51,200 nt of DNA from Clostridia bacterium (GTDB lineage Bacteria; Bacillota; Clostridia; Christensenellales; DTU072), in assembly GCA_028699795.1 (NCBI GenBank), contig JAQVTZ010000001.1, positions 1-51,200 of the forward strand, written 5' to 3'. Each line of letters starts with the position of its first letter. Position 1 is the first letter of the stretch. Below the pieces are notes generated by a model. It was not told the origin of the DNA, ran no database searches, and saw only the letters and a program-made list of their open reading frames with translations. Positions 1 to 50,789 of the stretch are shown one piece after another. The position numbers and the translations under genes are program-made.

Positions 1-199
1 GCCGAAACCGACGCTGATTTTTCAAATCAGGGTTCGGTTTCGCCTTACTCAGCCTATCCCGCATTGTCCGCCTCGGCATTCTTTCGCGGGGCTACGCGCC
101 CCGCTATCCCCCGACCTCGCCAACGCTAATTTCCTCACCGTGAGGACGGGTTTTCGCGTTTCTTTTTTCGGGGAATGGTTTGTTTTTTGTCGAATGCGC
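1..199 (+). repeat. Dispersed structured repeat, copy A (5' part cut by window edge)
   Basis: Aligns by eye with 47338-47541 and 50086-50319: long hairpin GCCGAAACCGAC..GGTTCGGTTTCGCC, GCGGGGC/GCCCCGC hairpin, then the 15-bp palindrome. Runs into promoter 200-228. Confidence 0.9.
132..146. promoter_or_regulatory. 15-bp palindrome TCCTCAC-C-GTGAGGA (site 1)
   Basis: Perfect 7-1-7 inverted repeat at the 3' end of repeat copy A, about 55 bp upstream of the -35 at 200. Confidence 0.8.
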
Positions 200-228
200 T
201 TGACAACGTATGTACACTATGCTATAAT
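200..228 (+). promoter_or_regulatory. Sigma-A type promoter, ATGTAC-spacer family
   Basis: TTGACA, 17-nt spacer (acgtATGTACactatgc), TATAAT. About 50 bp upstream of ATG 278. Confidence 0.75.
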
Positions 229-744: not shown

Positions 745-773
745 TTGACTTTATATGTACAGAGTGTTATAAT
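745..773 (+). promoter_or_regulatory. Sigma-A type promoter, ATGTAC-spacer family, with conserved leader 774-830
   Basis: TTGACT, 17 nt (ttatATGTACagagtgt), TATAAT with TGn extended -10. Leader AGTGTAAAGAGA-hairpin GAGGAA/TTCCTC-GAAAGCGAGG before ATG 831. Confidence 0.8.
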
Positions 774-830
774 AATAGTGTAAAGAGAGGAAGCGAGGGT
801 TTCCTCCACATCAAGAAAGCGAGGCACACC

Positions 831-1211
831 ATGAGCGAGGTTTTGATAAAAGAATACGAGTTTTCAGCGACGGCAGATTGTGACATTTACTGCGGTAACT
901 GGAGCGACGTCAAAAAAGACATTCTTGTTTATGCGGCGGAACGCATTGCCTGTTATCACGGCGACATTTTTATCACTTTTGGTCAGGTTGCCGATAGGCT
1001 GTCTGACAAAAACCTTCTTTCCCAGAATTTGAACATACGGGTTTATATTCACGGGTACGGTGCTGATTATGTAGATATAGATAACCCTTGCTATGACACT
1101 GAAAATAGGGATATGTTGAAAAGGGCTGTTGAACACAAGGGCGTGGTTATGTCGATAAAAAGAGCGGCGGGGGGCAACACGGTTGCCGTGCGCATCGAGG
1201 AGGCTTTATGA
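831..1211 (+). CDS. Hypothetical protein (126 aa)
   Basis: ORF track. Conserved leader/SD upstream. Its stop overlaps the next start (ATGA at 1208). No motif recognised. Confidence 0.7.
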   Translation: MSEVLIKEYEFSATADCDIYCGNWSDVKKDILVYAAERIACYHGDIFITFGQVADRLSDKNLLSQNLNIRVYIHGYGADYVDIDNPCYDTENRDMLKRAVEHKGVVMSIKRAAGGNTVAVRIEEAL

Positions 1212-4815: not shown

Positions 4816-6677
4816 TGGCAACCACTAGAATTCATTCAATTACGTCTACGCCCAAAGCCGCACTCGATTATGTTGTTGCCGACAAGGTAGAGATGTTTGA
4901 TTCGGAGGACATGTTGAACAAGAACGTTCTTTATGTTCTTGAAGGAGAGCACGTTGTTCGATATCCTACCTTGTCTTCGTTTGTTTTTAATTTATCGGGC
5001 GCAAGTTTTTATTCTGGGAACGTAGACCGTGAGCCATATAAAGTCTATCAGTCGTTAGAGGCGTTTGCGAAAGAGAAGGGAAAATATCACCAAGATGCGT
5101 TTGACACGAAGTCGGGACGTGAGGTTTCAATGTGGCACTTGCATCAGAGTTTCAACGGGAATGAGGTTGCTCCTCATGTTGCGCATGAGATTGGAATAAA
5201 GCTTGCGGAAAAATTATTTGCGGGTCATGCCGTTACCGTTTCAACACACACGAACACGAACAACGTTCATAATCACTTTATTATTTCGGCATGGAACGAC
5301 AAAGGATTGAAGTGGAATAACAGCAATAATAACTATCGCTTAATTCGAAATACGAGCGACCGCTTGTGCGAAGAGTATGGTCTTCACGTTCTCGATTCGA
5401 CGAAGGAATATCGCCTTAATATGTATGTAGACAAACAAGGCGTATCGAGAGCGTTCGAGCCAACAAGTCGTAAAATAGATATTATAACGGAACGTGATGT
5501 CGGCGTTTCTTTGCCCGATGATGTTTCTGGGTATCGACAAACCGATGCGTATGTTGATGCGGTTGTAAAAAAAGAGTCCGTTTCGGAAACAATAAAAAAA
5601 GATATTGACGCGGCGTTACCGTCATGTGCATCGTATGACGACCTCTTGCATCGTCTTCGTGAAATGGGTTACTCCATTCGCGACAAAAAGAAATCTGGTG
5701 AGTGGCGTGAACATATTTCTTATCAGCCGCCTTCCGCTCTTAAAGGAACAAGGGAAAATAAAATCGGGGATGGATATTACTATACGCGAGAGAATCTTAC
5801 ATCTGTAATCGAAGGGGCTTCTCGCGAAGCGCCGTCCGTCTCTATCGTTTCTGACGTTCCGTATGTCGAAGAATATGTTTATCCTGCTTGTATGACCCGC
5901 GCTTTGAATGATGACTATAAGGCGGTAATTGACTCCGCCTCGTCTTCTATATCCGTTGTTCCTCGGTCGTCGTTTGAAAAAGAAATCGTTACGCATATTC
6001 GTAAGGACGACAATTATTTGCGGCGCATTTCTGACAGCATAAGTAATGTTTCTGCTTCGAAAAGCAAGCCCGCCGTGTCTGCATCTTCTCCGTTGAGAGA
6101 CCATTCCTCTCGGAAGGACAGGTTGATTGAGGACATTCAAAACGGTCTTCGAAGCTTGCGCTATATTGAGACCCATAACGTTTCTGGTATAGGTCACATG
6201 GTTGTAATTTATTCTGCGGCAAAAGAAAATCATCGAAAGGCGCTCGTTGAATTTTCAAGCGCAGAAAAGGCATTGTCTCAAGTTGCCCGTCTCGTTTCCG
6301 TCCCCGATGATGCTCGGAGGTTGGCTAACAGCATTCAGTCGAATAAGGACGACGTTTCTTACCAAATCGAAAACTTATCGGGTGACTCGGAATTACTTCA
6401 AGAATATAACACTCTTATTGCCCGTCATAAACTTGATGACCCTTCCGTTATGAGCGAGCTTCGTTTGAAGCATGATGAATTTTCTGCGAGGCGCGATGAT
6501 ATTCGTTCCTTAATTCGAAAGGCGTCGAATGATGTCCTTGAGGTAGAAATTTGCCTACACACTTTCGAGCGAATATACGGAAAGGAATATGTGCGCGACG
6601 TGGTGTCCGCCTCACGTCAAACGGACGAGGCTCAGAGGGACGACAAGGAACGGGGCGATAAAAACAGGTCTCGCTAA
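4815..6677 (+). CDS. Relaxase (MobA/VirD2-type relaxase/mobilisation nuclease domain)
   Basis: N-terminal relaxase domain with His cluster HTNTNNVHNHFIIS and HLHQSF. Translationally coupled to mobC. Long coiled C-terminal region. Confidence 0.9.
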   Translation: MATTRIHSITSTPKAALDYVVADKVEMFDSEDMLNKNVLYVLEGEHVVRYPTLSSFVFNLSGASFYSGNVDREPYKVYQSLEAFAKEKGKYHQDAFDTKSGREVSMWHLHQSFNGNEVAPHVAHEIGIKLAEKLFAGHAVTVSTHTNTNNVHNHFIISAWNDKGLKWNNSNNNYRLIRNTSDRLCEEYGLHVLDSTKEYRLNMYVDKQGVSRAFEPTSRKIDIITERDVGVSLPDDVSGYRQTDAYVDAVVKKESVSETIKKDIDAALPSCASYDDLLHRLREMGYSIRDKKKSGEWREHISYQPPSALKGTRENKIGDGYYYTRENLTSVIEGASREAPSVSIVSDVPYVEEYVYPACMTRALNDDYKAVIDSASSSISVVPRSSFEKEIVTHIRKDDNYLRRISDSISNVSASKSKPAVSASSPLRDHSSRKDRLIEDIQNGLRSLRYIETHNVSGIGHMVVIYSAAKENHRKALVEFSSAEKALSQVARLVSVPDDARRLANSIQSNKDDVSYQIENLSGDSELLQEYNTLIARHKLDDPSVMSELRLKHDEFSARRDDIRSLIRKASNDVLEVEICLHTFERIYGKEYVRDVVSASRQTDEAQRDDKERGDKNRSR

Positions 6678-7357: not shown

Positions 7358-7648
7358 TTATTCTTCATATATCTCTTTTACAAAGAGGGTGTGCATTGCT
7401 TTTCTGGGAAAGGTTTGGGTCGGCATGGTTCGGATTATTGCCCCGCAGTCCTCGAGGCGGCGCAATGCTTGTGTAACGGTTCGCGATGGCATTCTGACAG
7501 CTTTGGCAACGTCATTAACGGACATGTGCAATATTGCTTCGTCGCTCTTGCCTTTAAGCGCAATATCAAGCGCCGCCGCGTAGAAACGCTTATGCGCAAA
7601 CGTTAGCGTTGTTCCGCTTGCTTCTGCGAGCTTTTGAAGCCGCATCAT
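7358..7648 (-). CDS. Winged-helix DNA-binding protein (97 aa)
   Basis: Start moved to ATG 7648 behind GAGGGA; the track start 7738 overlaps the upstream gene. HTH-like MSVNDVAKAVRMPSRTVTQALRRLEDCGAI. Confidence 0.65.
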   Translation of the reverse strand: MMRLQKLAEASGTTLTFAHKRFYAAALDIALKGKSDEAILHMSVNDVAKAVRMPSRTVTQALRRLEDCGAIIRTMPTQTFPRKAMHTLFVKEIYEE

Positions 7649-8178: not shown

Positions 8179-8207
8179 ATATTAGCACAGCGTACTTATT
8201 TTGTCAA
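8179..8207 (-). promoter_or_regulatory. Sigma-A type promoter (same family, minus strand) for the SSB-like/wHTH/HU operon
   Basis: Minus strand reads TTGACA, 17 nt (aaataAGTACgctgtgc), TAATAT. Confidence 0.7.
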
Positions 8208-8471: not shown

Positions 8472-11400
8472 TTACCTTCCCTTTTCGGTATTTTTTTCTT
8501 TATCCGAACGTTCGGGCGCGGTCTCCGTTTTTTGTTGTGCCGCTTTATCCTTTGCGGCGTCTATTTCTTCTTTCCATTGCTCTTTGGTCTTATGCGTCGT
8601 GTTTACGTCAAGCGCTGTTGTCAGATTGTTTTTGTCGGTCTCCTTTTGTTCGTTCTCCTGCGGGACGTATATTTTGGTCTTGTAATGCCCCTTTTCCTCG
8701 AACGCTTCTGCAAGGGAAATTTTGACCTCTCCCTTCTCTTTGCTTCGCGTCGCGATGCTTTCGATATGGTCTTTAAGCCCCTTTTGCGCTCCGTCGCCTA
8801 TGTCGATGCGGGTATGAATTACGCTCATCTTGCCGTCGGGCGTAGGGGCATATAGGGATATGTCACATTTCGTATAAGGATATGATACACCGTTTTTGTT
8901 TGCCTCGCCTCGTATTCCTTGTATCTGTTTCTCTGCGCTCTCGATAATTCGGTCGGCGATTTTCGGATGACATATTGTTCCGTTTTCGAATACGGGCTTG
9001 CTCGTCCAGTTTTCACAGAACGATACTTCAACGACCGCGCCGTTTTTGGCGGCATTATCGACAATCGCGGTTGCTCGGCTGGCGACGTTTGCGACAAACG
9101 ATTCGGGGGCGTTTTTGAGCTCTCCCTTTATGTCTCTTGATATCACCTTGCTTTTTGCGATGTAGTCTATTTGGGCGGACGTGAGTTTTGCCAATTCGGG
9201 GTGAGTTTCCTTCATTGACTCAAGTACTTTTAGGGGTGCTTTATCATACTTTGCTTTGAGCCCGCCTTGCTGTTGTTCGGATAAGTCAACAAACCGTTCG
9301 CTCAACATGTTGAATGTCGCGCTGTTGCGGTCTAGGCGCTCTACGGCGGATTCCAGTAAAGTAATTGCCTTGTCTTGCTCTTTGCGCGTTTCTGCGGTAT
9401 TCAGGAGCTCTACGTTGTCGTGCATGATTGAGACGTCTTCGGTTCGCGTCTCGAGAATGGCGGTCTGTTCTTTGAGGACTTCCATGATATCCTTGTTTGC
9501 TCCGTGCGCTTGTGCAAGAATCGGAAGCTCTCGTTTTGCTCTTTCTATGCCGTCGATTTGTGTTTCCGTAATTGTCAAATATTTATCTGTCATTTTTTTA
9601 ATTGTGTCTTTGTTGAGTTTTGTTTCGTCTTTAATCGTGAGGTCGAGATTAAAGCCTCTGGTGTCAAGCTCTGCCTTAATGTCGGCGGTTAAAGCGCGGG
9701 TTTCCTTGTAGATTACTTCAAGAGATTTCTGAAAATCTTGGAGTGAAAATCCGTTTGTATATGCCGCCATATAATTAAACGAGCTTGTGCTTGTCTCTAT
9801 CCCGAACGTGCTCGCCGTCGAGTATGCAACCGCTTCGGCTTGCGTTTCTTTGAGGCTTTTGTTTATATCGTCAACACTAAGCCCCATTTCTTGCGCGAGC
9901 GCGTTTTGGTCTTTGTGCAGGTCTGCGTGAGCCATTTCGTGAAGGAGCGTTGAGCATTTTTCGGTTAGCGGGAGCGAGTTTAGTATGGTGATGGTGTTGG
10001 TAAGGCGATTATATGTCCCTTGTGCTCCCGACTTAATCTCTTCTTCGACAACGGGTACGCCCCTGTTGGAACAAACGCCTTGCAATGCCTCATAAAGACG
10101 CGCCATCTTAACGGGGTCTTGTGAGGCAACTTTGGTGTCCAATTCTGTTGCGAGCTTTGCCTGTCTTTCGGGCGTGTTGACGATTTTGGTTTCGCCGCGA
10201 TTGTTTTTAATCGGCTTCCCGTTTTTGTCGTTGACGACCTCTTCTTTTGTAAATCCTCTTTTTACCCAAAGATACTCGGGGACAATACAATCTTTTACGT
10301 CAAAGACTGTTCCCGCCGTGAACGCGATGGGTACTTTTCCGAGAATCGCTCGGTCGATATATTTTTTCATTTCGTCGTCGTTATTAAATATCCCTCTCTC
10401 TTTGCCGTCGACTCTTATTCCCATCAAATGATTTGAGCGGTTCATTGTAAATTCGATTTTACTTCCGCCTAATTGGTGTGTGACGACGGGCTCACTACGG
10501 TCGCGCAACTGAGTAAGCAAGTCTGATTTGATTGCGCTAAACAATCCGTCTTTTCGGTTTTCTTTTGCCATAACGGGGATGATAATTTGCGCTCCTTGCG
10601 CTCCTTGTTTTACGTTGCGCCCGAAATCCTTCCATTGGTCGTAGCCCATGACGTGAGACGCCTCGGGCTTTTGCATCCATACGAGCATTGCGTTTGTAAA
10701 ACTGTAATTGTTGTAAAAGAGCTTGCCGCCCGTTGCAAGCCAATTTTTGAATTGGTCGGAGTCAAGCGCTTGCTTGATTCCGTTTTCGAGCTGTTCTTTT
10801 AACTTGTCTTTTTTAGACATGTCGGGCTGTTCTTTGTTTTCCATGTCTTCGCTCCTTTCGTTTGTATGGTTCTGATTGAAGAATTTAATGAACGTTTGTT
10901 GCTGTTCGGGGGTTAAATCGTGTCGCTCCAACGTGTTATCCATGCGGTTTCCTGTTGATATGTAATATGTGTCGTTTTGACTCATAACGGCGCGTTGCAT
11001 GTCTTCTCCGTTATACTCGATGTTCGCCATATAAACCATGTCTTTGACCTCGTACCCCTTGATTATAAAATTCTCGGGGGGAAGGTCGGGCTCTGTCTTT
11101 GCCATCGAATAGGCGTACACCTCTCCAACGGCTTCGTCAAATAACGGCGGAGTCATGTCGTAGAAATCTGTTCGCAAGATTGACCCCGTGCCGACGCTTT
11201 GTTCTCCGTTTGACGTTTCAGTTAGCTGTATGAGAAGTTTTTCCCCTTCGTTGTACATGGAGAGGCGAAGCGTTCCGTCTTCTCTGAGGGGCGCGTCTTC
11301 GAATATTTGATAAAGCCCGTTATGCGCATCGAGTTTGGCAACGCCGAGTTTTATTCCTTCCTTTCCTTGTTCGCGAGCTATTTCTTCATATATTTTAATG

Positions 11401-14400
11401 AGAAGACTGTCCTCGGGTCGGTCATTATCTTTGAGTAATTCCGCAAGTTTGTGAAGCGTATTTTCATCTGTTATGTAATAGTTTTTTGCGGCAGTAACAT
11501 GTTCGTCAAGCGTTCCGTAGTCACTATCCGTAAGCGTATAGACGGTTTGGTGTTCTTTTTCGGCGAGCTTTAGGTTGGTTTCGATTGGCATGTGGTCGTT
11601 GACTTTTTCTTTCAAGCCGCCTTTTTCGAGAACGAATTCTTTTATTTTGTCATCCGCGTCTACGAAAAACGAGTCCCTTTCGATTGGGTCATACTTTTCT
11701 TCGACGTATCCTCTAAATATAGCGCGTCCCGTTGGCTCATAGCCTCTCGTTCTTTCAAGCTCGAACGGCACATACCCAACTTCCCGCCAGTCGGCAATCT
11801 TTTCTTTGAGATTGTCCTCGAGATTTCCGCGCATAAAATCAGCGGAGTCGTATACGTATTCGCCCGTGATTACGTGCTTAAATTCAACGTTAAAGCCTCG
11901 CAGATAATAGTCGTCATATCCGTAATTCTCCTTTTTGTCTTCTTTCCAGTCGACATAGGCTTCGCTTGCGGATATATAGGTCATTTGCGGTATTTCGTAT
12001 AATTTTTCGGGATATTGGGCGCGTTGATAGGATTGTGGAGGCTCAGGGAGATAGTTCTGCGGGTATAGCGCCTTGTCTATCTTGTGTTCTGCGTCTGGGT
12101 CGTCGTTCACGACGCCCGTAATCCACTCTTTTGCTTCGACAAGGCTCTCGAAGGACATTGGTACTGACGGGACTTCGCCGAGATATACGATATTGGTTTC
12201 ATAGCTGTCGATTTTGTCATACTCGTATCCGCTTGCAAGCATGGCGTTGTCAATTTTTTCCTTGTACGCCTCAATGATGTCTTTTGCTATGTTGTCTGCA
12301 AAGAATATATCGGGCTCTTTTATGAGCGCTTCTGCGTCGCGCATTACATATTGCTCTTCGCTGATTTTATGTTCTTCGATGGTTCTTATATATCTGTCGC
12401 GTTCGGGAAGAATGTTTTTGGCGTATCGAGCGTCCATCAGTTGGTCGAGCAGTATTTCTTTTGCGAGCTTTGTTTTTGGGCTTGTCCATTCATATGCTTC
12501 AAGGCTCTTAATTGCTCTTTCTAGGGCGCGTTCGTGATAAAGACTACACGGCATTGGGTTTGTCGGGCGGGCGCTGTATTCATATGTAAGGCGTTCGGGA
12601 TAAAGTTCTCTTGTGATGGCGTAAGACTCTTTGCTCTGCGGGTCTTTTTGTATATATTCGTTGTTTAACCACGCCTCCGCATCGTTAATTGTGCGGAATA
12701 TTTTGGGGGATTCGCTTTCCTCTCCCTTAAAAACAATCTGATTCAGCGCATCGAGGGCGTCGGGTACGGTTTTTGCTACTGGATGATAACCGTAACTTTT
12801 TGGGATGTCGATTTCATACCCTACTTCCCTCATTGCATTTATGACTTTCAATTCGTTTTTGTCTTGTGCGGTTTTTCGAGCGGCTTCGATACGGTCAATC
12901 ATGTGTCTGTCATCGGTTATTTTCACTCTTTCGGGGTACAGGGCGAGGCGTATGATGTCTTTGGTTGTTGATAATTCGGGGCGCGTGAAGTTGGGATAAT
13001 TTGTCTCGGGATGCAGTATCCGACAAAGCCAATTTTCGGCGTCTTGGACAGTTGGGAAGCGTTCTATGTGTGGAAACGGGGGGTATTGCGGGTTGGTGTT
13101 ATTAAATTTCACTTCTCCCTGATAGGGTTCTGTTGTTTGGGTAAATCCGAGCGCCTCAAACGCCGCCTCGACTTTTTCTGTTTGTTCCCGTTCCATTTCA
13201 ACGCCCGCGGCTATAATGCGTTCTTTTTTTCCGCTCAGTACCTCGGTTATGCGGTTTCCGAGCGTTGCTTTTCTTTCTTCCCATAAAGAATAGGCGCGTT
13301 GATAGTTGTCTATTTGACGAGGCAGTTCATTGTATTGTCTGATAATGGAGGGGTCTTCAACCTCGTTCTCGGCGAACGCCTCTCTTACGTAATTGAGAGA
13401 AGCAATGTTTCCCACCATCAATTCAAAGGCGCTGTCTTCTAACAAGTCGGAGCGCGTTTTTGTTCCTCGGGCGTCATCATATCCGTACTGGTCATATTCG
13501 TGCATAAAGCTGTCTGCTCGCGCCGCAAGCTCATATGCGGAGTCTTGGAGCGTTTCTCGGCTTTCGTCGTTTTCGTTTATTTGGATTAGCAAATTTTCCG
13601 CGATTTCGCGTTGCTGTTGGTCGGGGGCGGTTTTGGACATTTCTTCTAATCTTTCGTATCTGTCAACCGTCTGACTCACGCCGTCTGTACCGATTTCCCG
13701 TGCGTAAAAATAAACCGAGCTTCTTTTCGCAATTTCGGTCTCTGCTTTGGCGAGGATGTTTGCTATGTTCTCTGTAAGGTCTTTTTCACGATTTTGAAGC
13801 TCTTGCGGCAGGAGAACGATTCCGAGCTCTTTTTCCGCCGAGCGTACTTTTTGAAAGCATCCGAGCTCTTCTGTCATCGTGAGCTGATTTTCTATTTTAA
13901 TGGCGGTTGTACTCTTGTTCTGCTGAATGCTTGCATTAAAGTTGCGGATAGGTTCATACCCGTATTGTGTGACGCGATATGCAATGTACGGCGCGTCGTT
14001 GTCTGCTCCGTGGTCGGCAAATCGAGCCCTTGCGTCCGTAATGATAATGTCTCCGTTAGATGCCGTTGTCCCACCTTTGGTTGCCGCCTCTACTCTCTCT
14101 TCGAGACTTGTATCCCCCGTCCTCACCGTGAGGAGACGGTTCTCCCCGTCCCTCATTCGAATGGTCATTAACTCGTAATTAGACGGAACGGGTGTTGATA
14201 AGTCGATTTCTATTTGCGTAACCTCTGGTTTTGGCTTCATTACGGCGAGAACGCTATGGATGTCTTTTTCGCGAGACTCCCTTACCCGAGTAACGTCGTC
14301 GAGGGCTTGTGTGAGCCTTCCCATTGCCTCAATTTTTTCCGCTTCGTCAAACGGCGCGGTCATATTGTCTATCATTTTGGTTTCCACCTCAAAGGGAGAG

Positions 14401-32277: not shown

Positions 32278-32306
32278 TTGACATCATATGTACATTGTGT
32301 TATAAT
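32278..32306 (+). promoter_or_regulatory. Sigma-A type promoter, ATGTAC-spacer family
   Basis: TTGACA, 17 nt (tcatATGTACattgtgt), TATAAT. Divergent from the transfer-operon promoter. Confidence 0.8.
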
Positions 32307-32332
32307 GATTATGTCATTAGGAGGGCATATCA

Positions 32333-33043
32333 ATGAATGGATTTGGAAGTATTCTTGAGTCGTGGTATTTGTCTGATAAATTTTTTCGCACGAGCGACGG
32401 CAAGGCGGTCGTGAAGATGTATGACGGAGGCGGACGTTTTGCAAATAGCGTTATTATGCCTACTTCCCTATACCCCCTTAATGGTGTTCCTCGTGTTTTT
32501 CATCACCACAACACTTCCATTGTCGACGACATGAGCGTGTTGTCTGCCTTCGATGCCGTTAGTTATAAAATAGGTCGTTGCTATGATAATAACGAGCGGG
32601 TTGTTGAAGAGCTTCGCCTTCGCAACGTGTCGGTATTTCCGTATGCGGGGTGGGCGTTTATTGGCAAGAACCAACTGCCCGTTCATCATTCGTGGGCGGT
32701 TGTTGGTAATAGCGTAATCGACCTTGCCGATGATTATACTCTTCTTGCTTCGGGGCGCCATGTTCCTGCGCCCGCTGAGAATGAGTCGATTGACAAGATG
32801 CGTTTGAAACTTGCATCGTTTTTTGAAATAACGAGCAAGTTTAAGAACTCTGTTCGTTGTTCTCCTGTTGGAGTCCCGACGCCTTTTATGCTTTATGTGG
32901 GCGCTCCTTGTGAACCGTCTGACGCCAGAAAGACATATCAGGCGCTTATGCGCGAGTATCCCCGTCATGAGGCACAGCGAAATGTTGACCCTTCTGGATT
33001 CAACGCGACGCAAAGGATATTTTACGATAAAGGCTTAATGTAG
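32333..33043 (+). CDS. Hypothetical protein with a putative papain/transglutaminase-like Cys-His-Asp core (236 aa)
   Basis: AGGAGGG RBS. Blocks GRCYDNN .. GWAF .. HHSWAVV .. VIDLA align with GRECYKNA .. GFAY .. PHAWAVD .. VIDPT of 46493-47026. Confidence 0.6.
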   Translation: MNGFGSILESWYLSDKFFRTSDGKAVVKMYDGGGRFANSVIMPTSLYPLNGVPRVFHHHNTSIVDDMSVLSAFDAVSYKIGRCYDNNERVVEELRLRNVSVFPYAGWAFIGKNQLPVHHSWAVVGNSVIDLADDYTLLASGRHVPAPAENESIDKMRLKLASFFEITSKFKNSVRCSPVGVPTPFMLYVGAPCEPSDARKTYQALMREYPRHEAQRNVDPSGFNATQRIFYDKGLM

Positions 33044-33077: not shown

Positions 33078-33323
33078 CTTGCCTTCGGACGGACGTCGGA
33101 ACGCACAAGAGCTTTCGCGACATAAACCGCTACGCTTTTTATTTCACGGTCTCTTGTACATTCCTTGCATGCGGGCTTTTTCGACTTTGCCGAAACCGAC
33201 GCTGATTTTTCAAATCAGGGTTCGGTTTCGTTTTACTCAGCCTATCCCGCATTGTCCGCCTCGGCATTCTTTTGCGGGGCTACGCGCCCCGCTACCCCCC
33301 CGACCTCACCAACGCTGATTTTC
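33078..33323 (+). repeat. Dispersed structured repeat, copy B (shorter at both ends, no palindrome)
   Basis: Aligns with 49975-50218 of copy E. Several substitutions fall in the long hairpin (GACTTT.., ..TTTCGTTTT). Confidence 0.85.
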
Positions 33324-33367: not shown

Positions 33368-33396
33368 TTGACATTATATGTACGGCGTGTTATAAT
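33368..33396 (+). promoter_or_regulatory. Sigma-A type promoter, ATGTAC-spacer family, with conserved leader
   Basis: TTGACA, 17 nt (ttatATGTACggcgtgt), TATAAT. The leader starts AGAGTAAAGAGA. Confidence 0.8.
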
Positions 33397-33445
33397 GAGA
33401 GAGTAAAGAGAAAGTGCTTCAGGGCTATGGAAAGAGGTAGTAAAA

Positions 33446-33781
33446 ATGAAATCGTTAGAGAACATCTACAAGGACATCAAAAAGGACTCTATGATTGTTT
33501 TATGCAAAAACATTCTAGTCAGAAGTGATGGTAAGGTTGTTGAAACTTACCACGACAAGAAAAACATGTGCTACATCGATGTTGTTTTCGAATCGGGTAA
33601 AGTGTTTTCTATCGGAAAGCGGACAAACATAAGATTATACGTATCCGACCTAATCAAAAACTGCCAGTCTCAGATGGAACAGATAGTAGGAGAAGATGAC
33701 GGATTAACCATAGAAGAAAAGGATAACATAATTGACAGGCTGAATATGGTTATCAATGGACATGCGAACTTGCAGGAATAG
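33446..33781 (+). CDS. Hypothetical protein (111 aa)
   Basis: ORF track. AGAGGTAG-type SD. No motif recognised. Confidence 0.6.
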   Translation: MKSLENIYKDIKKDSMIVLCKNILVRSDGKVVETYHDKKNMCYIDVVFESGKVFSIGKRTNIRLYVSDLIKNCQSQMEQIVGEDDGLTIEEKDNIIDRLNMVINGHANLQE

Positions 33782-34851: not shown

Positions 34852-34880
34852 TTGACAGATTATGTACATCGTGTTATATT
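34852..34880 (+). promoter_or_regulatory. Sigma-A type promoter, ATGTAC-spacer family
   Basis: TTGACA, 17 nt (gattATGTACatcgtgt), TATATT. Confidence 0.75.
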
Positions 34881-34917: not shown

Positions 34918-35274
34918 ATGACGAGTTATTTTGCATTGCGGGTAAGCCCGCGGCTTAAAGATGATTTTTATGCGTTTTGCAAGCGCAAGGGCGTGTCGGC
35001 GGGTACGGCGGTTAAAATGTTTGTAAAAAGCTTCCTTTCCGTCGGAGCTGACAAGTTGGGTTGGTCTCTTCTCAACAGCGATAGCGTTGTTTACGGAGAA
35101 GGGGATAATCCTGCGCGGGTTTCTATTCTTATGGACGCTGAGTTGCGGAGGGCGTTTTCGGATGCTTGTGCGGAGATTGGCGTTCCAATGAGCGTCGTCG
35201 TGAGGTCGTTCATGTTTTTTGTTGTTAAGAACGACTCGTTCCCGTTTCAGGATGGGAAGGCGGGTTGTCCATGA
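34918..35274 (+). CDS. Tandem RelB/DinJ-like ribbon-helix-helix protein (118 aa)
   Basis: Two DinJ-like units: FALRVSPRLKDDFYAFCKRKGVSAGTAVKMFVKSFL and RVSILMDAELRRAFSDACAEIGVPMSVVVRSFMFFVVKNDSFPF. GAAGGAGG RBS. Confidence 0.7.
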   Translation: MTSYFALRVSPRLKDDFYAFCKRKGVSAGTAVKMFVKSFLSVGADKLGWSLLNSDSVVYGEGDNPARVSILMDAELRRAFSDACAEIGVPMSVVVRSFMFFVVKNDSFPFQDGKAGCP

Positions 35275-36849: not shown

Positions 36850-37953
36850 TTATATGTTGCTTTTTCGCCTGTTACAGTCGGCGCATAGCATCTGACAGTT
36901 TTCGGCGGTTGTTCTTCCGCCCTTACTCCACGGCGTTATGTGGTCGGCTTGCATTTCTTCAAGGGCGTATTGTTCTCTGCACTTAGGGCATTCTCCTCTT
37001 TGTCTTTCGTATGCCGCTCGTGCCATTCTGGGCGTAAATGCTCGGATGCTTAAAGCGCTCTCGCGTCTTGCGTCCTCTCCCGCTAACATGTATTCATATA
37101 TGCCCGCTTGTCTTGTTATGTCATCATCTTGCATGAGGTCAGCAATGCGTGTCTCGAGCAGATGCGGGTCATATTTATTGTTTTGATATATGTTATAGTA
37201 CATCCCCCACTCGAGCCCCTTCATTTCTCTGCGGTATTGAGGAAACGTTGCCTTTACCCAGTTTATGACGCTCAGAAAATACAGCCATAGCTCGTTACAA
37301 TTTGTGTCGTGTTGGTGTTCCGCCATATAGTCTTCAATTTTATCTTCTCTTCTTGCCGCTATCCATCGTATCGCCGTCTCGAGGTATTCTTGTCGTATTG
37401 ACGAGCCCTTCATATAGTCGCTTGCGATGGCGTGGGCGGGGCATCCGCTTTTACTGAAATATCGTTTCGCGTCGGTTAGCCATTCGCCCGTATATATGGC
37501 ATTGCGGCGCTCCTGCGCGGAGAGCTGTTCACCAACCATGTTGACTATCTCGAACCAGTCGAGTTTTTCTTTGTCTGTTCCTTCGCATATATATATCATA
37601 AGGGGATAGGAAAGGATTTGCTCTTGCTCGGTTGTTGTGAGGTTGCTGAACCCCATATGTTCGATGGAGTAGTCTCCATTAACGTATTGGCAGATGCTAA
37701 TTGTTCGTTGCTGTCCATCCAAAACTTCGTATGTTCCCGCCTCGGTTGGAATCCAATACATCACGTTGAGCGGAAAAGCCTTTCTTACCGTTCGGATGAC
37801 TTCATCGCGCTGTTTATCTTTATATATAAACTCACGCTGATAGGCGGGGCGTATGTTCAATCTCCCGCTGTATCCTGTGACGCCATTTTCCGCGCTATCG
37901 GTATATCCTTTGACTATTTCGCGTACAGGAATTTCGTGCAATTTGATTTTCAT
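36850..37953 (-). CDS. DUF262 (ParB-like nuclease/NTPase, DGQQR) protein with C-terminal HNH endonuclease motif (367 aa)
   Basis: RPAYQREFIY and LDGQQRT in the N-terminal domain. C-terminal CPKC..ADHITPWSKGGRTTAENCQMLCADCNRRKSN. ATGA overlap with the upstream methyltransferase gene. Confidence 0.8.
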   Translation of the reverse strand: MKIKLHEIPVREIVKGYTDSAENGVTGYSGRLNIRPAYQREFIYKDKQRDEVIRTVRKAFPLNVMYWIPTEAGTYEVLDGQQRTISICQYVNGDYSIEHMGFSNLTTTEQEQILSYPLMIYICEGTDKEKLDWFEIVNMVGEQLSAQERRNAIYTGEWLTDAKRYFSKSGCPAHAIASDYMKGSSIRQEYLETAIRWIAARREDKIEDYMAEHQHDTNCNELWLYFLSVINWVKATFPQYRREMKGLEWGMYYNIYQNNKYDPHLLETRIADLMQDDDITRQAGIYEYMLAGEDARRESALSIRAFTPRMARAAYERQRGECPKCREQYALEEMQADHITPWSKGGRTTAENCQMLCADCNRRKSNI

Positions 37954-39149: not shown

Positions 39150-39254
39150 GTCGTTTCTCCTTTTAAGGCGTATGTTTTTTCCACGAGCCCTTATATCCAT
39201 TATCATACCCCATCTCTGCATACATTTCTCAAAAAATGCGTGTGCCTCCCTGTT

Positions 39255-39731
39255 TCTTCCCGCGTCGTTCCTCCTCCGCTAGACCCGAAAGCCGTTATAC
39301 GGGCAAGGGGGCGCAGAGCACCCCATGAAATAAAGAACAACGGCGATGCCGTTGAGCCCGTGGCACTCTTGCCTTCTTCGAAGGGTTTTGCCTTCGGACG
39401 GACATCGGAAGGCGCAAGAGCTTTCGCGACATAAACCGCTACGCTTTTTATTTCACGGTCTCTTGCACTTTCCTTTCATGCGGGCGTTATCGGCTTCGCC
39501 GAAACCGACGCTGATTTTTCAAATCAGGGTTCGGTTTCGCCTTACTCAGCCTATCCCGCATTGTCCGCCTCGGCATTCTTTCGCGGGGCTACGCGCCCCG
39601 CTATCCCCCGACCTCGCCAACGCTGATTTTCCTCACCGTGAGGACGATTTTGCGTTTTTCTTTTTTTGGGGGGGGGTAGTTTGTTTGGTGTCCACGTCGT
39701 TTACAAAGGTCGCAGTTCGCGTAAATGGTGC
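39255..39731 (+). repeat. Dispersed structured repeat, copy C (lacks the opening terminator)
   Basis: Aligns by eye with 49852-50319 of copy E almost base for base. G9 tract at 39668-39676 versus G8 in copy E. Confidence 0.9.
39630..39644. promoter_or_regulatory. 15-bp palindrome TCCTCAC-C-GTGAGGA (site 8)
   Basis: Perfect copy at the 3' part of repeat C, about 90 bp upstream of the -35 at 39732. Confidence 0.8.
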
Positions 39732-39760
39732 TTGACAACGTATGTACTACGTGTTACAAT
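39732..39760 (+). promoter_or_regulatory. Sigma-A type promoter, ATGTAC-spacer family, with conserved leader 39761-39811
   Basis: TTGACA, 17 nt (acgtATGTACtacgtgt), TACAAT. Leader AGTGTAAAGAAATCAA-GCC(gtaa)GGC-ACGTGAAAGCGAGGA. Confidence 0.8.
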
Positions 39761-39811
39761 TATAGTGTAAAGAAATCAAGCCGTAAGGCACGTGAAAGCG
39801 AGGATTTTATC

Positions 39812-40852
39812 ATGGCAATCATAAAGAGCACAAAAGAGGTCATTACGTCGTATAAGCCCGCAAACACCCCTTCTCTGGAACAGCTTGCGCAGATTGCTCG
39901 CGAGACCACAATCAAGTGGAAGGATACTATCGTTGATAATTCGAACGGATGCGCGGTTACGATTAGCCCTGCTCTTCAAGTCACTTACCCTATGCTCGTG
40001 AACGGGTCAAATGATAAACTATGTTCTGACATTACGGACACGGCTTTTTATCAGCTTTGTTCGCGGGTTGGCGTTCCTTCCAAATATGTTTGTAAGTGTT
40101 TTGAGGCGGGAAAGACAGAGCTCGCGCTTAATAACTTCTCGGCGTGGGCGGGCGAATGCAAGTCGTCGATGCTCGTTCGCTCTCACGAAGGCGTTGTTCG
40201 GGCGTGTTTGTCCTCGGAGTACAGCACGTTTGACATCTATCAGGTATTAAGGGCTCTTTCTTATACGGTCGATACAGAGCGCTTTGTTCCGTCTCAGGTT
40301 TTCATGTCGTCTGACCGTCTTCACATTCGTTTTGTGGACTATACCCCTATTCATCAGGATGACGGGTCTCCCCTTTTTGCGGGATTTGTTGTCGACACGA
40401 GCGATATCGGGCAGGGCTCTTTGAGCATGAAGTTTTTCCTTTATCGGATGGCTTGCATGAACGGTTTGGTTATTTCTTCGATGGGCGGGACGCTGTTTCG
40501 TCTCAATCATGTCGGCGAAAAAATGTCGGAGAGTAAAATCGCTCTCTTTTCTCGGGCGTTTGCGGACATTGACCGTCTTGCAGGTAAGGCGGACATCCTC
40601 ATTGGGAGCTCTCGTAAAATCATGCTCAAAGACTATGAGCTTGCGATGTACATTGAGCGGGCGCGTCGCGAATTGAAGCTCAGCGCAGAAGGCGTCAAAA
40701 AGATGGAAGGTCTTATTTCATATACATATTCTCCTACCTTGTGGGGTCTGATAAGTAGTGTTTCTGAACTCGCGCAGGATTTCTCGTTGGAACAGCGCGT
40801 TCAGATGGAAGGATGGGCGGGGGAACTTCTCGTTCATTCGGCGGCAAGATGA
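39812..40852 (+). CDS. DUF932-family protein (346 aa)
   Basis: Start at ATG 39812, in frame within the track ORF. Blocks AFYQLCSRVGVPSKYV, VRACLSSEYSTFD, FVVDTSDIGQGSL.MKFFLYRMACMNGLV are typical of DUF932. Confidence 0.8.
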   Translation: MAIIKSTKEVITSYKPANTPSLEQLAQIARETTIKWKDTIVDNSNGCAVTISPALQVTYPMLVNGSNDKLCSDITDTAFYQLCSRVGVPSKYVCKCFEAGKTELALNNFSAWAGECKSSMLVRSHEGVVRACLSSEYSTFDIYQVLRALSYTVDTERFVPSQVFMSSDRLHIRFVDYTPIHQDDGSPLFAGFVVDTSDIGQGSLSMKFFLYRMACMNGLVISSMGGTLFRLNHVGEKMSESKIALFSRAFADIDRLAGKADILIGSSRKIMLKDYELAMYIERARRELKLSAEGVKKMEGLISYTYSPTLWGLISSVSELAQDFSLEQRVQMEGWAGELLVHSAAR

Positions 40853-43924: not shown

Positions 43925-43953
43925 TTGACACGTTATGTACATTATGTTAATAT
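43925..43953 (+). promoter_or_regulatory. Sigma-A type promoter, ATGTAC-spacer family, with conserved leader (parAB)
   Basis: TTGACA, 17 nt (cgttATGTACattatgt), TAATAT. Leader AGAGTAAAGAAGA-GCTGTTT(taga)AACAGC-AGAAAGCGAGGA. Confidence 0.8.
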
Positions 43954-44006
43954 GAAAGAGTAAAGAAGAGCTGTTTTAGAAACAGCAGAAAGCGAGGATA
44001 TTTTTA

Positions 44007-44822
44007 ATGGCTACTAAGTTTTTGGCGTTTGTTAATGGAAAGGGCGGAGTAGGGAAAACGACCTCTGTTTTTCACGTTGCAGGCGTACTTTCTAAAAGGG
44101 GTGAGCGTGTTCTTGTTATCGATATGGATAAACAAAGAAACTCTACTCAGTCGTTTGTTTTGGAAAACAAGCCCTCTTACACCATTTACGATTTGATGAT
44201 ACCGTATCGCTTGAGTAACAATGTTCTGAACGAAATGCGCAAGAGTGGTGTTTCGTTTGAGGGCGCAGTTACAAAAACTCTTTTCAAGCACCACGGGAAT
44301 GCGAGTCCGCGATATTACGGCGTCGACATTATTTGTGGGGACATCCGCATGGATGACCAACGAGAGCTTGCTCTGGTTAAAAGCGACGAATTTGCAAATT
44401 GTATTCGAGGGGGTTCTTGCGAGTATGATTGGGTTATTGTTGATATGCCCCCTTCCAACAAAGAGGTTAATCGCATTACTTTTGCTTTTGTCGACCATGC
44501 CGTGATTCCGCTTACCACGGACGACACAGACTCCATTTCGGGTTACGGGGACATTGTAAAAGAGGTTGACGCGGCGAGGTCAGCAAATCCAACGTTAAGC
44601 GTTCTGGGCGTCTATTGTTCGCGTTATTCCCCTTCTTCTTTGAGCGATTATGTTCGGGGCGAAGTGGAGAAGTTTTCGACATTCATTCCCGTTGTTATCC
44701 CGAGGCTCGCGGTTATCCCAGAAGCTCGCGCCCTCAATCGTCCGCTCAGTTTTTATCACAAGGGAGAGGCTCTTGAAGCCTTTGAAAGTTTAGTAGATGA
44801 AATCACAAGGAGGATATCATAA
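44007..44822 (+). CDS. parA: ParA/Soj-family partition ATPase
   Basis: Deviant Walker A NGKGGVGKTT; VLVIDMDKQ. Confidence 0.92.
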   Translation: MATKFLAFVNGKGGVGKTTSVFHVAGVLSKRGERVLVIDMDKQRNSTQSFVLENKPSYTIYDLMIPYRLSNNVLNEMRKSGVSFEGAVTKTLFKHHGNASPRYYGVDIICGDIRMDDQRELALVKSDEFANCIRGGSCEYDWVIVDMPPSNKEVNRITFAFVDHAVIPLTTDDTDSISGYGDIVKEVDAARSANPTLSVLGVYCSRYSPSSLSDYVRGEVEKFSTFIPVVIPRLAVIPEARALNRPLSFYHKGEALEAFESLVDEITRRIS

Positions 44823-47026: not shown

Positions 47027-47061
47027 TTATTGAATCCTCGTTACTTTGCTATCGATTCTGA

Positions 47062-47086
47062 CAGCGGGCTCTCCCCGCTGTTTTTT
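47062..47086 (+). terminator. Intrinsic terminator (opening part of repeat D)
   Basis: CAGCGGG-ctctc-CCCGCTG followed by T6. Confidence 0.85.
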
Positions 47087-47473
47087 ATGCCCGTTTTCCC
47101 GCCCCGCGTCGTTCCTCCTCCGCCAGACCCGAAAGCCGTTATACGGGCAAGGGGGCGCAGAGCACCCCATGAAAGAAAGCTCAACGGCGTTGCCGTTGAG
47201 CTCGTGGCACGCTTGCCTTCTTCGAAGGGATTTGCCTTCGGACGGACATCGGAACGCACAAGAGCTTTCGCGACATAAACCGCTACGCTTTTTATTTCAC
47301 GGTCTCTTGCACTTTCCTTTCATGCGGGCTTTTTCGGCTTTGCCGAAACCGACGCTGATTTTCCAAAGCAGGGTTCGGTTTCGCCTTATTAAGCCTATCC
47401 CGCATTGTCCGCCTCGGCGTTCTTTCGCGGGGCTACGCGCCCCGCTATCCCCCGACCTCGCCAACGCTGATTT

Positions 47474-47488
47474 TCCTCACCGTGAGGA
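47474..47488. promoter_or_regulatory. 15-bp palindrome TCCTCAC-C-GTGAGGA (site 10)
   Basis: Perfect copy in repeat D, about 55 bp upstream of the -35 at 47542. Confidence 0.8.
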
Positions 47489-47541
47489 CGGGTTTTCGCG
47501 TTTCTTTTTTCGGGGAATGGTTTGTTTTTTGTCGAATGCGC

Positions 47542-47570
47542 TTGACAACGTATGTACAGAGTGTTATAAT
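47542..47570 (+). promoter_or_regulatory. Sigma-A type promoter, ATGTAC-spacer family, with short conserved leader
   Basis: TTGACA, 17 nt (acgtATGTACagagtgt), TATAAT. Leader AGAGTAAAGAAGTGAAAGCGGGGG. Confidence 0.8.
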
Positions 47571-47605
47571 CATAGAGTAAAGAAGTGAAAGCGGGGGTAT
47601 TGTTT

Positions 47606-48526
47606 ATGGGGTTGGACGCGGTTCGAAATCTTCCGATTACGGATTATGCGCAAAAGTGCGGATATACTCTTGTTCACAAGGGAGCGAGATATGTTTCCCT
47701 TAAAGAACATGATTCCGTGATGATTGATGTTCAGTTAAATCGTTTTTGGAGAAATTCGGTTTGCGGTAATGGGTCTTCTCGCGGGCATGGGTCAATAATC
47801 GATTTTGCAATGGAGTTTTGCGGGTATGACCTCTCTCAAGCCATTTCTGAGCTTTCAAGGACATATGGGGTTGATTCTGAGCGCCCCGCCCCCGTGGTTG
47901 TATCGAAGCCCGTTTTGGTGTCGCCAAAGCGCGAGGTCGGAGACATTAAGTTTCCGAGGCGGGCTAAAAAGAATGTGGCGGCGTTTCAATACCTTCGAGG
48001 GCGCGGGGTTTCCGATTCCGTTATCCGTTATTTTGTGGGTTCGGACATGCTTTATCAGGACGAAAACGATAATTGCGTGTTTGTGTCTCCGAGCAGACGG
48101 TTTGCGTGTTTGCGCGGCACGTCCGAAAAGCGGTTTATGCTTGATATTGTCGGTTGTGATTATGGCGAGTGTTTTTTCTTGAAGGGCAATCCGAATCCGT
48201 CAGGGTTGCGGCTTTACGTTACAGAGTCAGTCATTGACCTTATGTCTCTTGTGTCGCACATGGAGGCGACCGACAAAGCGGTTTGGAACTACTCGTATTT
48301 GGCTTTGTCGGGTACGAATAAAATCGATTGTTTGTTCCGTTGGGTTGACGAGTTAAGCGCTCAAGCGCCCCTCACCGTTTATTTGGCGCTTGATAATGAC
48401 CCCGCGGGAATTGCGGCTTGCGAGGCGGCGGAGACAAGGCTTGATGAACGCGAGTCCGTTTGTTGTGAGCGGATGCTTCCCCCGAGCGGCAAAGACTGGA
48501 ACGAACATATAAAAAGCCATTTATAG
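47606..48526 (+). CDS. Toprim-domain protein (DUF3991/primase-like N-terminus + Toprim)
   Basis: Start at ATG 47606, in frame within the track ORF. C-terminal LYVTESVIDLMSL .. VYLALDNDPAGIAACE (Toprim E and DxD). Confidence 0.75.
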   Translation: MGLDAVRNLPITDYAQKCGYTLVHKGARYVSLKEHDSVMIDVQLNRFWRNSVCGNGSSRGHGSIIDFAMEFCGYDLSQAISELSRTYGVDSERPAPVVVSKPVLVSPKREVGDIKFPRRAKKNVAAFQYLRGRGVSDSVIRYFVGSDMLYQDENDNCVFVSPSRRFACLRGTSEKRFMLDIVGCDYGECFFLKGNPNPSGLRLYVTESVIDLMSLVSHMEATDKAVWNYSYLALSGTNKIDCLFRWVDELSAQAPLTVYLALDNDPAGIAACEAAETRLDERESVCCERMLPPSGKDWNEHIKSHL

Positions 48527-48536
48527 ATAGAAAGGC

Positions 48537-48565
48537 TTGACATCATATGTACGGAGTGTTATAAT
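48537..48565 (+). promoter_or_regulatory. Sigma-A type promoter, ATGTAC-spacer family, with conserved leader
   Basis: TTGACA, 17 nt (tcatATGTACggagtgt), TATAAT. Leader AGGGTAAAGAGAAGTC-GCC(gcaa)GGC-ATGGAGAAAGCAGAGG. Confidence 0.8.
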
Positions 48566-48617
48566 GTAAGGGTAAAGAGAAGTCGCCGCAAGGCATGGAG
48601 AAAGCAGAGGTTTCATC

Positions 48618-48896
48618 ATGGAAGCTAAGAAATTGAATGGAAATGAGTTGGCGAAAGCGGTTGCGCTTTCCGTTAATTCGTATAATTTTGACACAAATGG
48701 TTTTGTCGAGACAATGAGCAGAGAGCACCGCACCCTTCAACAGAGTTTGACGAGATTGTGCATGGCATGGCTCTATAACTGTTCGCGTGACGATTACGAG
48801 GTTGATGGTCGCAATCAGGCTTCTCATGACATCGCGAAGTTTATATACGATAAAGCCGCGGAAGAAGACAAGTCTCTTTGGCTTCCGCTTGTATAG
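48618..48896 (+). CDS. Hypothetical protein (92 aa)
   Basis: ORF track, with the conserved leader/SD upstream. No motif recognised. Confidence 0.65.
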   Translation: MEAKKLNGNELAKAVALSVNSYNFDTNGFVETMSREHRTLQQSLTRLCMAWLYNCSRDDYEVDGRNQASHDIAKFIYDKAAEEDKSLWLPLV

Positions 48897-49784: not shown

Positions 49785-49806
49785 TTTATTTTGATTCCGT
49801 TTCCGA

Positions 49807-50319: not shown

Positions 50320-50348
50320 TTGACAACGTATGTACTACGTGTTACAAT
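50320..50348 (+). promoter_or_regulatory. Sigma-A type promoter, ATGTAC-spacer family, with conserved leader 50349-50407
   Basis: TTGACA, 17 nt (acgtATGTACtacgtgt), TACAAT. The leader matches the one at 774-830 except for the last bases before the ATG. Confidence 0.8.
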
Positions 50349-50407
50349 TATAGTGTAAAGAGAGGAAGCGAGGGTTTCCTCCACATCAAGAAAGCGAGGA
50401 TTTTCAT

Positions 50408-50770
50408 ATGTATTCTAAGTCTGAAAACGGTAACTATGTCACGTATTTTGAGGTCAAAGACGCAAAGAACACCGACAAGGTTTTTCACGGGCGGGTTTCC
50501 GAGTCGATTAAGGGAAAACCAAAGGAAGACGGCAAGCACGAGTGGACTTTTGAAACGTGGTCGGCAAGGTTTGTCGGAGGGGCATATGAGAAAGCCAAAA
50601 TGCTTTCCGATAAGGCAAGCATCCGTCTCACAGAGTACAATGTCCGCAAGCCCTACTCGAAGGAAAAGAAATCCTCTTATCCTTACATCCTTATCATGGA
50701 TTTTGAGGTTGTTGGCGTATCTCCCGAAGCGCCCGAAGTTCCCGAGGATGAAGTCATGTATGACGTTTAA
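50408..50770 (+). CDS. SSB-like paralog (120 aa)
   Basis: Shares ETWSARFVGGAYEKAKML and YPYILIMDFEVV blocks with 7686-8138. Acidic C-terminus PEVPEDEVMYDV. Single-gene cassette between repeats E and F. Confidence 0.65.
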   Translation: MYSKSENGNYVTYFEVKDAKNTDKVFHGRVSESIKGKPKEDGKHEWTFETWSARFVGGAYEKAKMLSDKASIRLTEYNVRKPYSKEKKSSYPYILIMDFEVVGVSPEAPEVPEDEVMYDV

Positions 50771-50789
50771 TTGAGCGCCCCAATATCCC

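Follow-up and report, generated by a model that had tools for sequence, protein, structure and literature searches.

Seven copies of a promoter-leader cassette

Contig JAQVTZ010000001.1 belongs to the 1.86-Mb metagenome-assembled genome of a Clostridia bacterium, and the window that we analyzed (51,200 nucleotides) is the entire contig. At seven places in the window, a promoter of the same family is followed by the same kind of leader: a conserved block at the predicted transcription start (GTAAAGA; hereafter, the 5' block), a linker, a purine-rich Shine-Dalgarno (SD) sequence, and an ATG. The genes behind these cassettes are unrelated to each other. A first-pass annotation of this DNA had proposed that the seven leaders share a hairpin that is maintained by covariation. 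We found that the two blocks at the ends of the leader, and not the hairpin between them, are what is conserved.

The promoter together with the beginning of the leader (TTGAC-N4-TATGTAC-N4-TGTTAnAAT-N3-AGnGTAAAGA) matches exactly seven times in the window, always on the plus strand and at the seven sites that had been reported, and it has no match in 100 shuffles. A relaxed pattern finds 11 family promoters in the window (ten on the plus strand and one on the minus strand). Seven of these have the full cassette, so those reported first are real, and the other four (at 200, 32278, 34852, and 8207(-)) have other leaders. Family promoters are confined to this one contig of the genome.

Cassette 1 (745..833 (+)) has its promoter at 745-773, the 5' block GTAAAGAGAG at 780-789, an 8-bp hairpin at 787-806 (dG -11.8), the SD GAAAGCGAGG at 815-824, and an ATG at 831 that begins a 126-amino-acid (aa) protein of unknown function. 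Cassette 2 (33368..33448 (+); promoter 33368-33396, 5' block 33403-33412) has a linker that pairs weakly (dG -1.9), followed by the SD GAAAGAGGT at 33430-33438 and the ATG at 33446 of a gene with a 111-aa product. Cassette 3 (39732..39814 (+); promoter 39732-39760, 5' block 39767-39776) precedes a DUF932-family protein of 346 aa; it has the hairpin GCC(GUAA)GGC at 39780-39789 (dG -4.9), its SD at 39794-39803, and its ATG at 39812. Behind cassette 4 (43925..44009 (+); promoter 43925-43953, 5' block 43960-43969) lie ParA and then ParB, and the leader contains the hairpin GCUGUUU(UAG)AAACAGC at 43970-43986 (dG -7.2), with the SD at 43988-43997 and the ATG at 44007.

Cassette 5 (47542..47608 (+); promoter 47542-47570) is a minimal form, in which the 5' block (47577-47586) directly abuts the SD GAAAGCGGGG (47587-47596), with neither linker nor hairpin; the ATG at 47606 begins a Toprim/DUF3991 primase-like protein. 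Cassette 6 (48537..48620 (+); promoter 48537-48565, 5' block 48572-48581) has the hairpin GCC(GCAA)GGC at 48585-48594 (dG -4.9), the SD GAAAGCAGAGG at 48600-48610, and the ATG of a 92-aa product at 48618. In cassette 7 (50320..50410 (+)), the 5' block is at 50355-50364, the hairpin at 50362-50381, the SD at 50390-50399, and the ATG of a 120-aa product at 50408. This gene (50408-50770) had been described as SSB-like, and we found no Pfam match for it.

Cassette 7 is a recombinant, because its promoter is of the cassette 3 type (the promoter and the region upstream match cassette 3 at 36/36 and 111/120 positions) and its leader is that of cassette 1 (45/45 positions identical from +1 to +45). 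Since the leaders at 774 and 50349 are identical from +1 to the SD, the seven leaders that had been treated as separate cases amount to six independent leaders with four independent hairpins. The hairpin positions given above replace earlier ones that were 2-3 nt too low, and the hairpin at 43970 has 7 bp and a 3-nt loop (TAG) rather than the 4-nt loop (taga) first described. We did confirm that two of the loops are of the GNRA type (GUAA and GCAA), that the leader at 47571 lacks a hairpin, and that the leader at 33397 pairs weakly.

The 5' block is tied to the promoter

The cassette promoters are close to the sigma-A consensus (CTTGACA, a 17-bp spacer, and TGnTATAAT), with 10-12 of 12 consensus matches and the TG extension. 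Conservation runs unbroken from the -10 box to about +10: it includes A-3, the discriminator, T-1 (1.2 bits), and GTAAAGAGAA (0.8-2.0 bits per position). In the linker beyond GTAAAGAGAA, it is about 0.2 bits per position. The conserved ends of the leader, which the first-pass annotation had pointed out, are real and under selection: they are kept across plasmids whose proteins are just 40-55% identical. The 5' block always lies 6-7 nt past the -10 box, with anything from 0 to 36 nt between it and the SD. Its variants are almost all purine-to-purine changes. Across the family, 23 of 31 non-redundant promoters that were picked by the ATGTAC box in the spacer alone carry the 5' block.

Bacterial start-site selection favors a pyrimidine at -1 and a purine at +1. 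Also, at near-consensus promoters the limiting step is promoter escape, and this depends on the initial transcribed sequence. The 5' block keeps a fixed place relative to the -10 box and not to the SD, and it has the T-1/G+1 arrangement; on both grounds, an element of the promoter or of the initial transcribed sequence is at least as good a reading as the post-transcriptional control point that had been suggested. Judging from the sequence, the +1 is predicted to be the G of GTAAAGAG, which would give the mRNAs the fixed start GUAAAGAGAA.

We considered several other readings and rejected them. STAB-SD, a purine-rich element of the GAAAGGAGG type in a Firmicute 5' untranslated region (UTR), reportedly stabilizes the 5' end of the cryIIIA mRNA of Bacillus thuringiensis. 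STAB-SD is a perfect complement of the anti-SD and is far from the start codon, whereas in these cassettes the strong complement is the true SD. The duplex of the 5' block with the 16S 3' tail has an energy of only -3.3 to -3.7 kcal/mol, versus -12.9 kcal/mol for the true SD block (both computed with the canonical Firmicute tail, which is from general knowledge and is not this genome's own sequence). At -3.3 kcal/mol, this pairing is too weak for the 5' block to be an SD or a STAB-SD. By inspection, we also rejected a pairing between the 5' block and the spacer from SD to ATG, because this spacer is U-rich in some lineages but A-rich in L017/L021, and the block stays the same. And no inverted repeat involves the promoter, as a folded single-strand promoter of the Frpo type would require.

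An extended ribosome-binding block

The sequence GAAAGCGAGG had been proposed as the common SD. It is exact in four leaders (at 815, 39794, 43988, and 50390) and degenerate in the other three, where it has one mismatch (at 47587) or fits more loosely (at 33430 and 48600). The distance from SD to ATG had been given as about 7 nt, which agrees with the 6-9 nt that we measured in the window. In its extended form, GAAAG-n-GAGG, the SD block can form a 10-bp duplex with the 16S tail that leaves one base bulged, at the -12.9 kcal/mol given above. For reference, an uninterrupted GAAAGGAGG would reach -16.7 kcal/mol and a plain AGGAGG -10.7 kcal/mol. The SD block also precedes about 13 internal genes of these plasmids and is therefore a preferred strong ribosome site rather than something specific to the leader. 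GAAAGnGAGG followed by an ATG occurs five times on the 51-kb contig versus zero times in the remaining 1.8 Mb of the genome.

In cassette 1, a second SD-like copy (GGAAGCGAGG, 789-798) forms the 5' arm of the hairpin, and leader 7 has the same. The 3' arm of this hairpin is anti-SD-like (UUUCCUCC; window 787-824). By sequence, this arm could in principle pair with the true SD, in the geometry of a decoy or a switch.

The two blocks are shared by a family of plasmids

To reach relatives of the window, we used one DNA pattern scan of metagenomes (which gave L008) and homologs of the DUF932 protein (35 proteins, 31-56% identity) that led to plasmid-sized contigs. For most of the relatives, about 20 kb was accessible. 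The same plan (the -10 box, 6-7 nt, (T)GTAAAGAGAA, a linker of 0-36 nt, GAAAG[A/C/T]GAGG, 5-10 nt, and ATG) stands before unrelated genes in at least 13 related plasmid lineages, including the complete plasmid pOBV01. It is present in all lineages down to about 41% identity of the DUF932 protein (homologs at 41-54%) and fades at 32-45% (L030 and L031). On pOBV01, cassettes lie at 2237, 2934, 7114, 14218, 51929, and 53290; among them are three full copies (2190-2282, 14171-14263, and 51882-51974) that are identical or differ by 1-2 bases and that precede three different genes.

Three lineages (L017, L018, and L021) lack the ATGTAC box in the promoter spacer, and in another (L012) the box is present in just one of four cassette promoters. 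Both leader blocks are kept in all of these. Because the blocks persist where the box is lost, the leader modules are older or more constrained than the presumed operator.

The cassette is not a feature of the host chromosome. Besides the absence of the SD block with ATG from the other 1.8 Mb of this genome, a search for the two-block pattern in 401 genomes of the class returned one chance-like match. Among GTDB species genomes, the promoter core occurs only as seven single promoters without the leader, which look like chance matches or generic strong promoters. A scan of viral contigs gave no match.

The hairpin is recurrent and optional

The middle of the leader had been described as structurally maintained, with covariation. 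RNAalifold finds no consensus pairs in the seven leaders of the window, because their hairpins are neither homologous nor alignable, and it finds none in nine orthologous ParA leaders either. Most of the orthologous leaders have no hairpin: there is a hairpin in three of the nine ParA leaders (the window, L008, and L026), each of a different sequence, and in one of five DUF932 leaders, which is the window's own. The claim of a maintained and covarying middle is not supported.

Hairpins are nevertheless more common than expected in long linkers. None of the single leaders in the window folds significantly better than its shuffles (minimum free energy z-scores of -0.45 to -1.6), yet four of the six independent linkers in the window reach a dG of -4 kcal/mol or below, versus about 1.1 expected, which is a weak excess for the set. 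Family-wide, no structure is predicted for half of the independent linkers, and combining the linkers in one test yields a Fisher P of 0.07. Linker length matters: at the same threshold (dG <= -4 kcal/mol), 0 of 27 linkers under 17 nt have a hairpin, versus 10 of 18 linkers of at least 17 nt (3.2 expected; these counts include paralogous copies, so the P-values for enrichment are optimistic). All ten of these hairpins end 0-8 nt before the SD block (seven of them at 0-1 nt), and their distance from +1 varies from 8 to 23 nt. Put fairly, the hairpin recurs but is optional: it goes with long linkers, its position is set by the SD, and it is no conserved, covarying part of the leader.

A single hairpin recurs in the sister lineage L017/L021. 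The leaders L017:6671-6727, 7461-7516, and 8607-8663 and L021:5918-5970 and 8659-8717 share a 5-bp hairpin, GYCUU-GAAGA-AAGRC, that lies 1 nt before the SD. Over seven paralogous sequences, 94% of the cells in the alignment are paired, versus at most 59% if the partner is slid. An alternative UUCA/UGAA hairpin in the same leaders shows no variation.

We also noticed a terminator-like score on the minus strand (43986-43960 and 806-780), where the complement of the 5' block (UCUUCUUUAC) comes after the leader hairpin. From its sequence, this arrangement could be a stop to antisense transcription that enters the promoter.

The plasmid and its other elements

The ends of the window (1-127 and 51074-51200) are identical, which fits a circular assembly of about 51,073 bp with k = 127. 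The terminal 127-mer is also present at 39498, inside a repeat, and because it belongs to a repeat itself, circularity is likely rather than proven. The contig encodes a relaxase, a coupling protein, a PrgI/VirB4-like ATPase, a CHAP hydrolase, and a topoisomerase, as well as ParA/ParB, SNase, the DUF932-family protein, the Toprim/DUF3991 primase-like protein, and a ribbon-helix-helix (RHH, RelB-fold) protein. By its predicted gene content, the element is a conjugative plasmid. Its nearest named relative is pOBV01 (60.6 kb, MOBP/MPF_T, conjugative) from the cultured Oscillibacter valericigenes Sjm18-20, and 12 kb of the window had no megablast match among PLSDB plasmids. A module with an EcoRI-like adenine methylase and a GmrSD-N/HNH nuclease (36850-39221 (-)) is opposed to the plus-strand cassette blocks that flank it.

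A GC-rich, hairpin-dense repeat of about 430 nt is present in six copies (33079-33320, 39197-39629, 47041-47473, 49786-50218, and 50773-51200 (+1-132)). These repeats have 54-58% GC, versus 46% for the contig. Each closes with a terminator-like hairpin just 5' of a cassette promoter; for example, the copy at 47041..47515 (+) ends in TTTCCTCACCGTGAGGACGGGTTTT. This terminator-like hairpin (repeat family D6) is found upstream of 4-5 promoters, about 50 nt before the -35 box, and is separate from the leader.

Among the family promoters without the GTAAAGA block, the one at 200..228 (+) has TGTCATAGGA in its leader and a gene at 278-622 downstream, and the one at 32278..32306 (+) has a short leader with TGTCATTAGGAGG and a gene at 32333-33043. 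The leaders of these two promoters (229-245 and 32307-32325) share another motif, TGTCAT[A/T]AGGA, which suggests a second class of cassette, possibly for regulator genes. The minus-strand family promoter (8179..8207 (-)) has AAGTAC in its spacer, an unrelated leader, and a perfect GAAAGGAG SD.

The remaining family promoter without the block (34852-34880 (+)) precedes the gene for the RHH protein (34918-35274 (+); 118 aa), which has a C-terminal RelB/RHH fold and thus lies behind a family promoter of its own. Homologs of this protein adjoin the par loci in lineages with the ATGTAC box, including pOBV01 (5864-6193). Compared to the PDB, it has just weak matches to DinJ/RelB and no significant match to Reg576. 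The RHH protein is a candidate for an autoregulated global repressor of the ATGTAC-box promoters.

Comparison to known systems

The closest analogy that we found is to EGeRS2 of the Bacillus plasmid p576, in which four strong sigma-A promoters (P20c, P23c, Preg576, and PardC576) are repressed by Reg576, an autoregulated RHH protein (PMC6294495, PMC8708921). Some of the p576 motifs lie just upstream of the RBS (ribosome-binding site), and a 75-bp deletion in the leader that removed inverted repeats reduced expression by about half (PMC6294495). Both are Gram-positive conjugative plasmids with several short operons of the establishment type and a mosaic, variable set of genes, and in both, each operon is behind a copy of a strong, extended -10 sigma-A promoter with conserved surroundings. 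Repression in p576 is by a small RHH protein that also regulates its own gene, and in the window an RHH protein is a candidate for the same role. There is no sequence similarity between the two systems: p576 has a dual TTATCCC heptamer as its operator, whereas these plasmids have the ATGTAC box in the spacer. Also, an invariant +1 block and SD have not been described for p576, whereas here the leader blocks outlast the operator box. Repression and transient expression were shown for p576; for the window, they are presumed.

Another described element is EGeRS1 of pLS20, which is 420-750 bp long, GC-rich, and rich in inverted repeats, and which blocks read-through (PMC8708921). The ~430-nt GC-rich repeats of the window match this description, and it is by description that we liken them. 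By analogy, the plasmid seems to combine EGeRS1-like and EGeRS2-like elements.

The CUP repeats of the IncN plasmids pKM101 and R46, which are controlled by ArdK (Delver & Belogurov 1997, as cited in PMC6289460), are similar, as summarized there, in that repeated conserved upstream elements precede leading-region, replication, and regulator genes of a conjugative plasmid and are bound by one self-regulating plasmid repressor. They differ in having a Gram-negative host and an unrelated sequence and, within that summary, in being defined by the ArdK site instead of by a shared 5' UTR and SD.

In the PeSL (promoter-early stem-loop) elements of the T4-type phages RB49 and phi1, many copies of a consensus early promoter, a stem-loop, and an SD stand before small unrelated genes (Arbiol et al. 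2010, PMC2839356). There, gene modules are shuffled by recombination between copies, as in cassette 7 of the window and among the three near-identical pOBV01 cassettes. Unlike the cassettes here, PeSLs belong to phages and not to plasmids. Also, the stem-loop of a PeSL acts as a terminator, placed at the promoter or ahead of it, whereas the leader hairpin in the window is downstream of +1, is beside the SD, and has no U-tract.

A recombining expression cassette is the favored explanation

We give about even odds (roughly 0.5) to the explanation that these are recombining expression cassettes for establishment genes, in which a repressible consensus promoter extends through the initial transcribed sequence, the SD pairs over 10 bp with one bulge, and the hairpin is optional. 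Conjugative plasmids of gut-type Clostridia would place a modular cassette of about 100 bp before their establishment and maintenance operons (parAB, DUF932, the primase-like gene, and small genes of unknown function). The first module would be the near-consensus sigma-A promoter with the 5' block, which, as the initial transcribed sequence, would fix the start, would favor escape from a very tight promoter, and would also give the mRNA an unstructured, purine-rich 5' end. The second module would be the extended SD, GAAAG-n-GAGG, joined to the first by a free linker of 0-36 nt. The short, GC-clamped hairpin that a long linker usually forms would be an optional local stabilizer or insulator of the ribosome-binding site and not a regulatory structure. 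Regulation would act on the DNA: the ATGTAC box of the promoter spacer would be the binding site for the plasmid's RHH repressor, and a burst of expression would follow when the plasmid enters a new cell. The cassettes recombine with one another, and in this way unrelated genes would come to share them.

Several observations weigh against this explanation. Single positions of the 5' block (T2, A4, and A5) have 2.0 bits, which is poorly explained by a generic purine-rich start and suggests a specific partner. AAAGnGA is common to the 5' block and the SD block, with three such copies in leader 1, and in p576, too, operator motifs occur beside the RBS. The RHH protein was not seen in lineages without the ATGTAC box (within the approximately 20 kb of each that we examined). 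As for the hairpin, its enrichment was counted with paralogous copies included, and in the L017/L021 hairpin two of the five pairs are compensatory, with U-G intermediates (this is from seven paralogous sequences, and 47 of 500 shuffles do as well). The hairpin may be more than optional in some lineages.

The specificity of the 5' block, at up to 2 bits per position, could instead reflect a DNA operator, which is an unlikely but possible alternative. By analogy with p576, a plasmid repressor that is conserved in all lineages would bind TGTAAAGAGAA at +1 and perhaps also AAAGnGAGG at the RBS. The overlap with +1 is a classic position for an operator, and both the shared AAAGnGA and the RBS-proximal motifs of p576 would fit. 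However, the block has no dyad and no repeat with fixed spacing, and the distance between the two blocks ranges from 0 to 36 nt. Lineages with different promoter spacer boxes have an identical block, and we found no DNA-binding protein in all lineages (the RHH protein is in the ATGTAC-box lineages only). The SD block is at the exact distance expected of an SD and is explained by its pairing with 16S rRNA.

A specific partner might also act on the RNA, and this seems a little more doubtful than an operator. GUAAAGAGAA would be a 5'-terminal tag of the family's early mRNAs, with the hairpin as an accessory at most, and it would be read by a host or plasmid factor (an RNA-binding protein, a 5'-end-dependent RNase pathway, the ribosome, or a small RNA) that coordinates the stability or translation of the cassette mRNAs. 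If +1 is the G, then the block is the exact 5' end of every cassette mRNA. That its variants are nearly all purine-to-purine, that long linkers fold beside the SD more often than by chance, and that the L017/L021 hairpin keeps its pairing via U-G intermediates, which suggests that it acts as RNA, all point the same way. On the other side, there is no conserved helix, most orthologous leaders have no hairpin, and the minimal leader at 47577 lacks any linker. Conservation also begins upstream of +1, at A-3 and T-1. Outside the leaders, sequences on the plasmid that are complementary to the leader occur at chance level and lie within genes; the whole window has no Rfam match at gathering thresholds; and we did not identify an RNA-binding protein. 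The shared post-transcriptional control point that was first proposed is possible, and no complementary RNA or known RNA family accompanies it. If an RNA tag does exist, the establishment transcripts would have a shared identity at the post-transcriptional level, one that does not depend on the promoter operator of each lineage.

It is very improbable that the shared ends are just the residue of recent duplication or gene conversion, with an unselected leader and chance hairpins. The cassettes have clearly been copied and recombined, and no single leader folds better than its own shuffles, but across 40-55% protein identity the blocks do not vary and the linker that separates them is randomized, which largely refutes this idea; in addition, hairpins are enriched in long linkers and have a fixed position relative to the SD. 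Least probable of all is a nut-like antitermination site, in which a linear 5' element and a boxB-like hairpin with a GNRA or GAAGA loop would make RNA polymerase resistant to terminators: two hairpins of the window do have GNRA loops, and the stem length and loop of GYCUU-GAAGA-AAGRC resemble those of lambda boxB, but most leaders in the family have no hairpin, GNRA loops occur in just two of the six independent leaders of the window, the 5' block is the complement of a boxA-like sequence and not boxA, and read-through is not needed because every operon is served by a promoter of its own, with terminator-like hairpins on either side.

Implications for plasmid establishment in gut Clostridia

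To our knowledge, the regulation of conjugative plasmids in strictly anaerobic gut Clostridia is almost unstudied. The favored explanation places these cassettes within a known kind, the repeated and repressible promoter-leader cassettes of plasmid establishment regulons. What would distinguish them is the invariant +1 block together with a bulged, extended SD, both of which outlast the operator. The attractive claim of a covarying regulatory hairpin is corrected as unsupported, and in its place there is a different question, namely what reads the invariant 10-nt start of the mRNA. The cultured host of pOBV01, Oscillibacter valericigenes Sjm18-20 (DSM 18026), offers an experimental entry point. 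More generally, the establishment regulon of one widespread plasmid family would have a simple sequence signature (the -10 box, 6-7 nt, GTAAAGAGAA, a linker, GAAAGnGAGG, and ATG). This signature could be used to list the early genes of these plasmids, which are mostly of unknown function and are candidates for roles in anti-defense or establishment.

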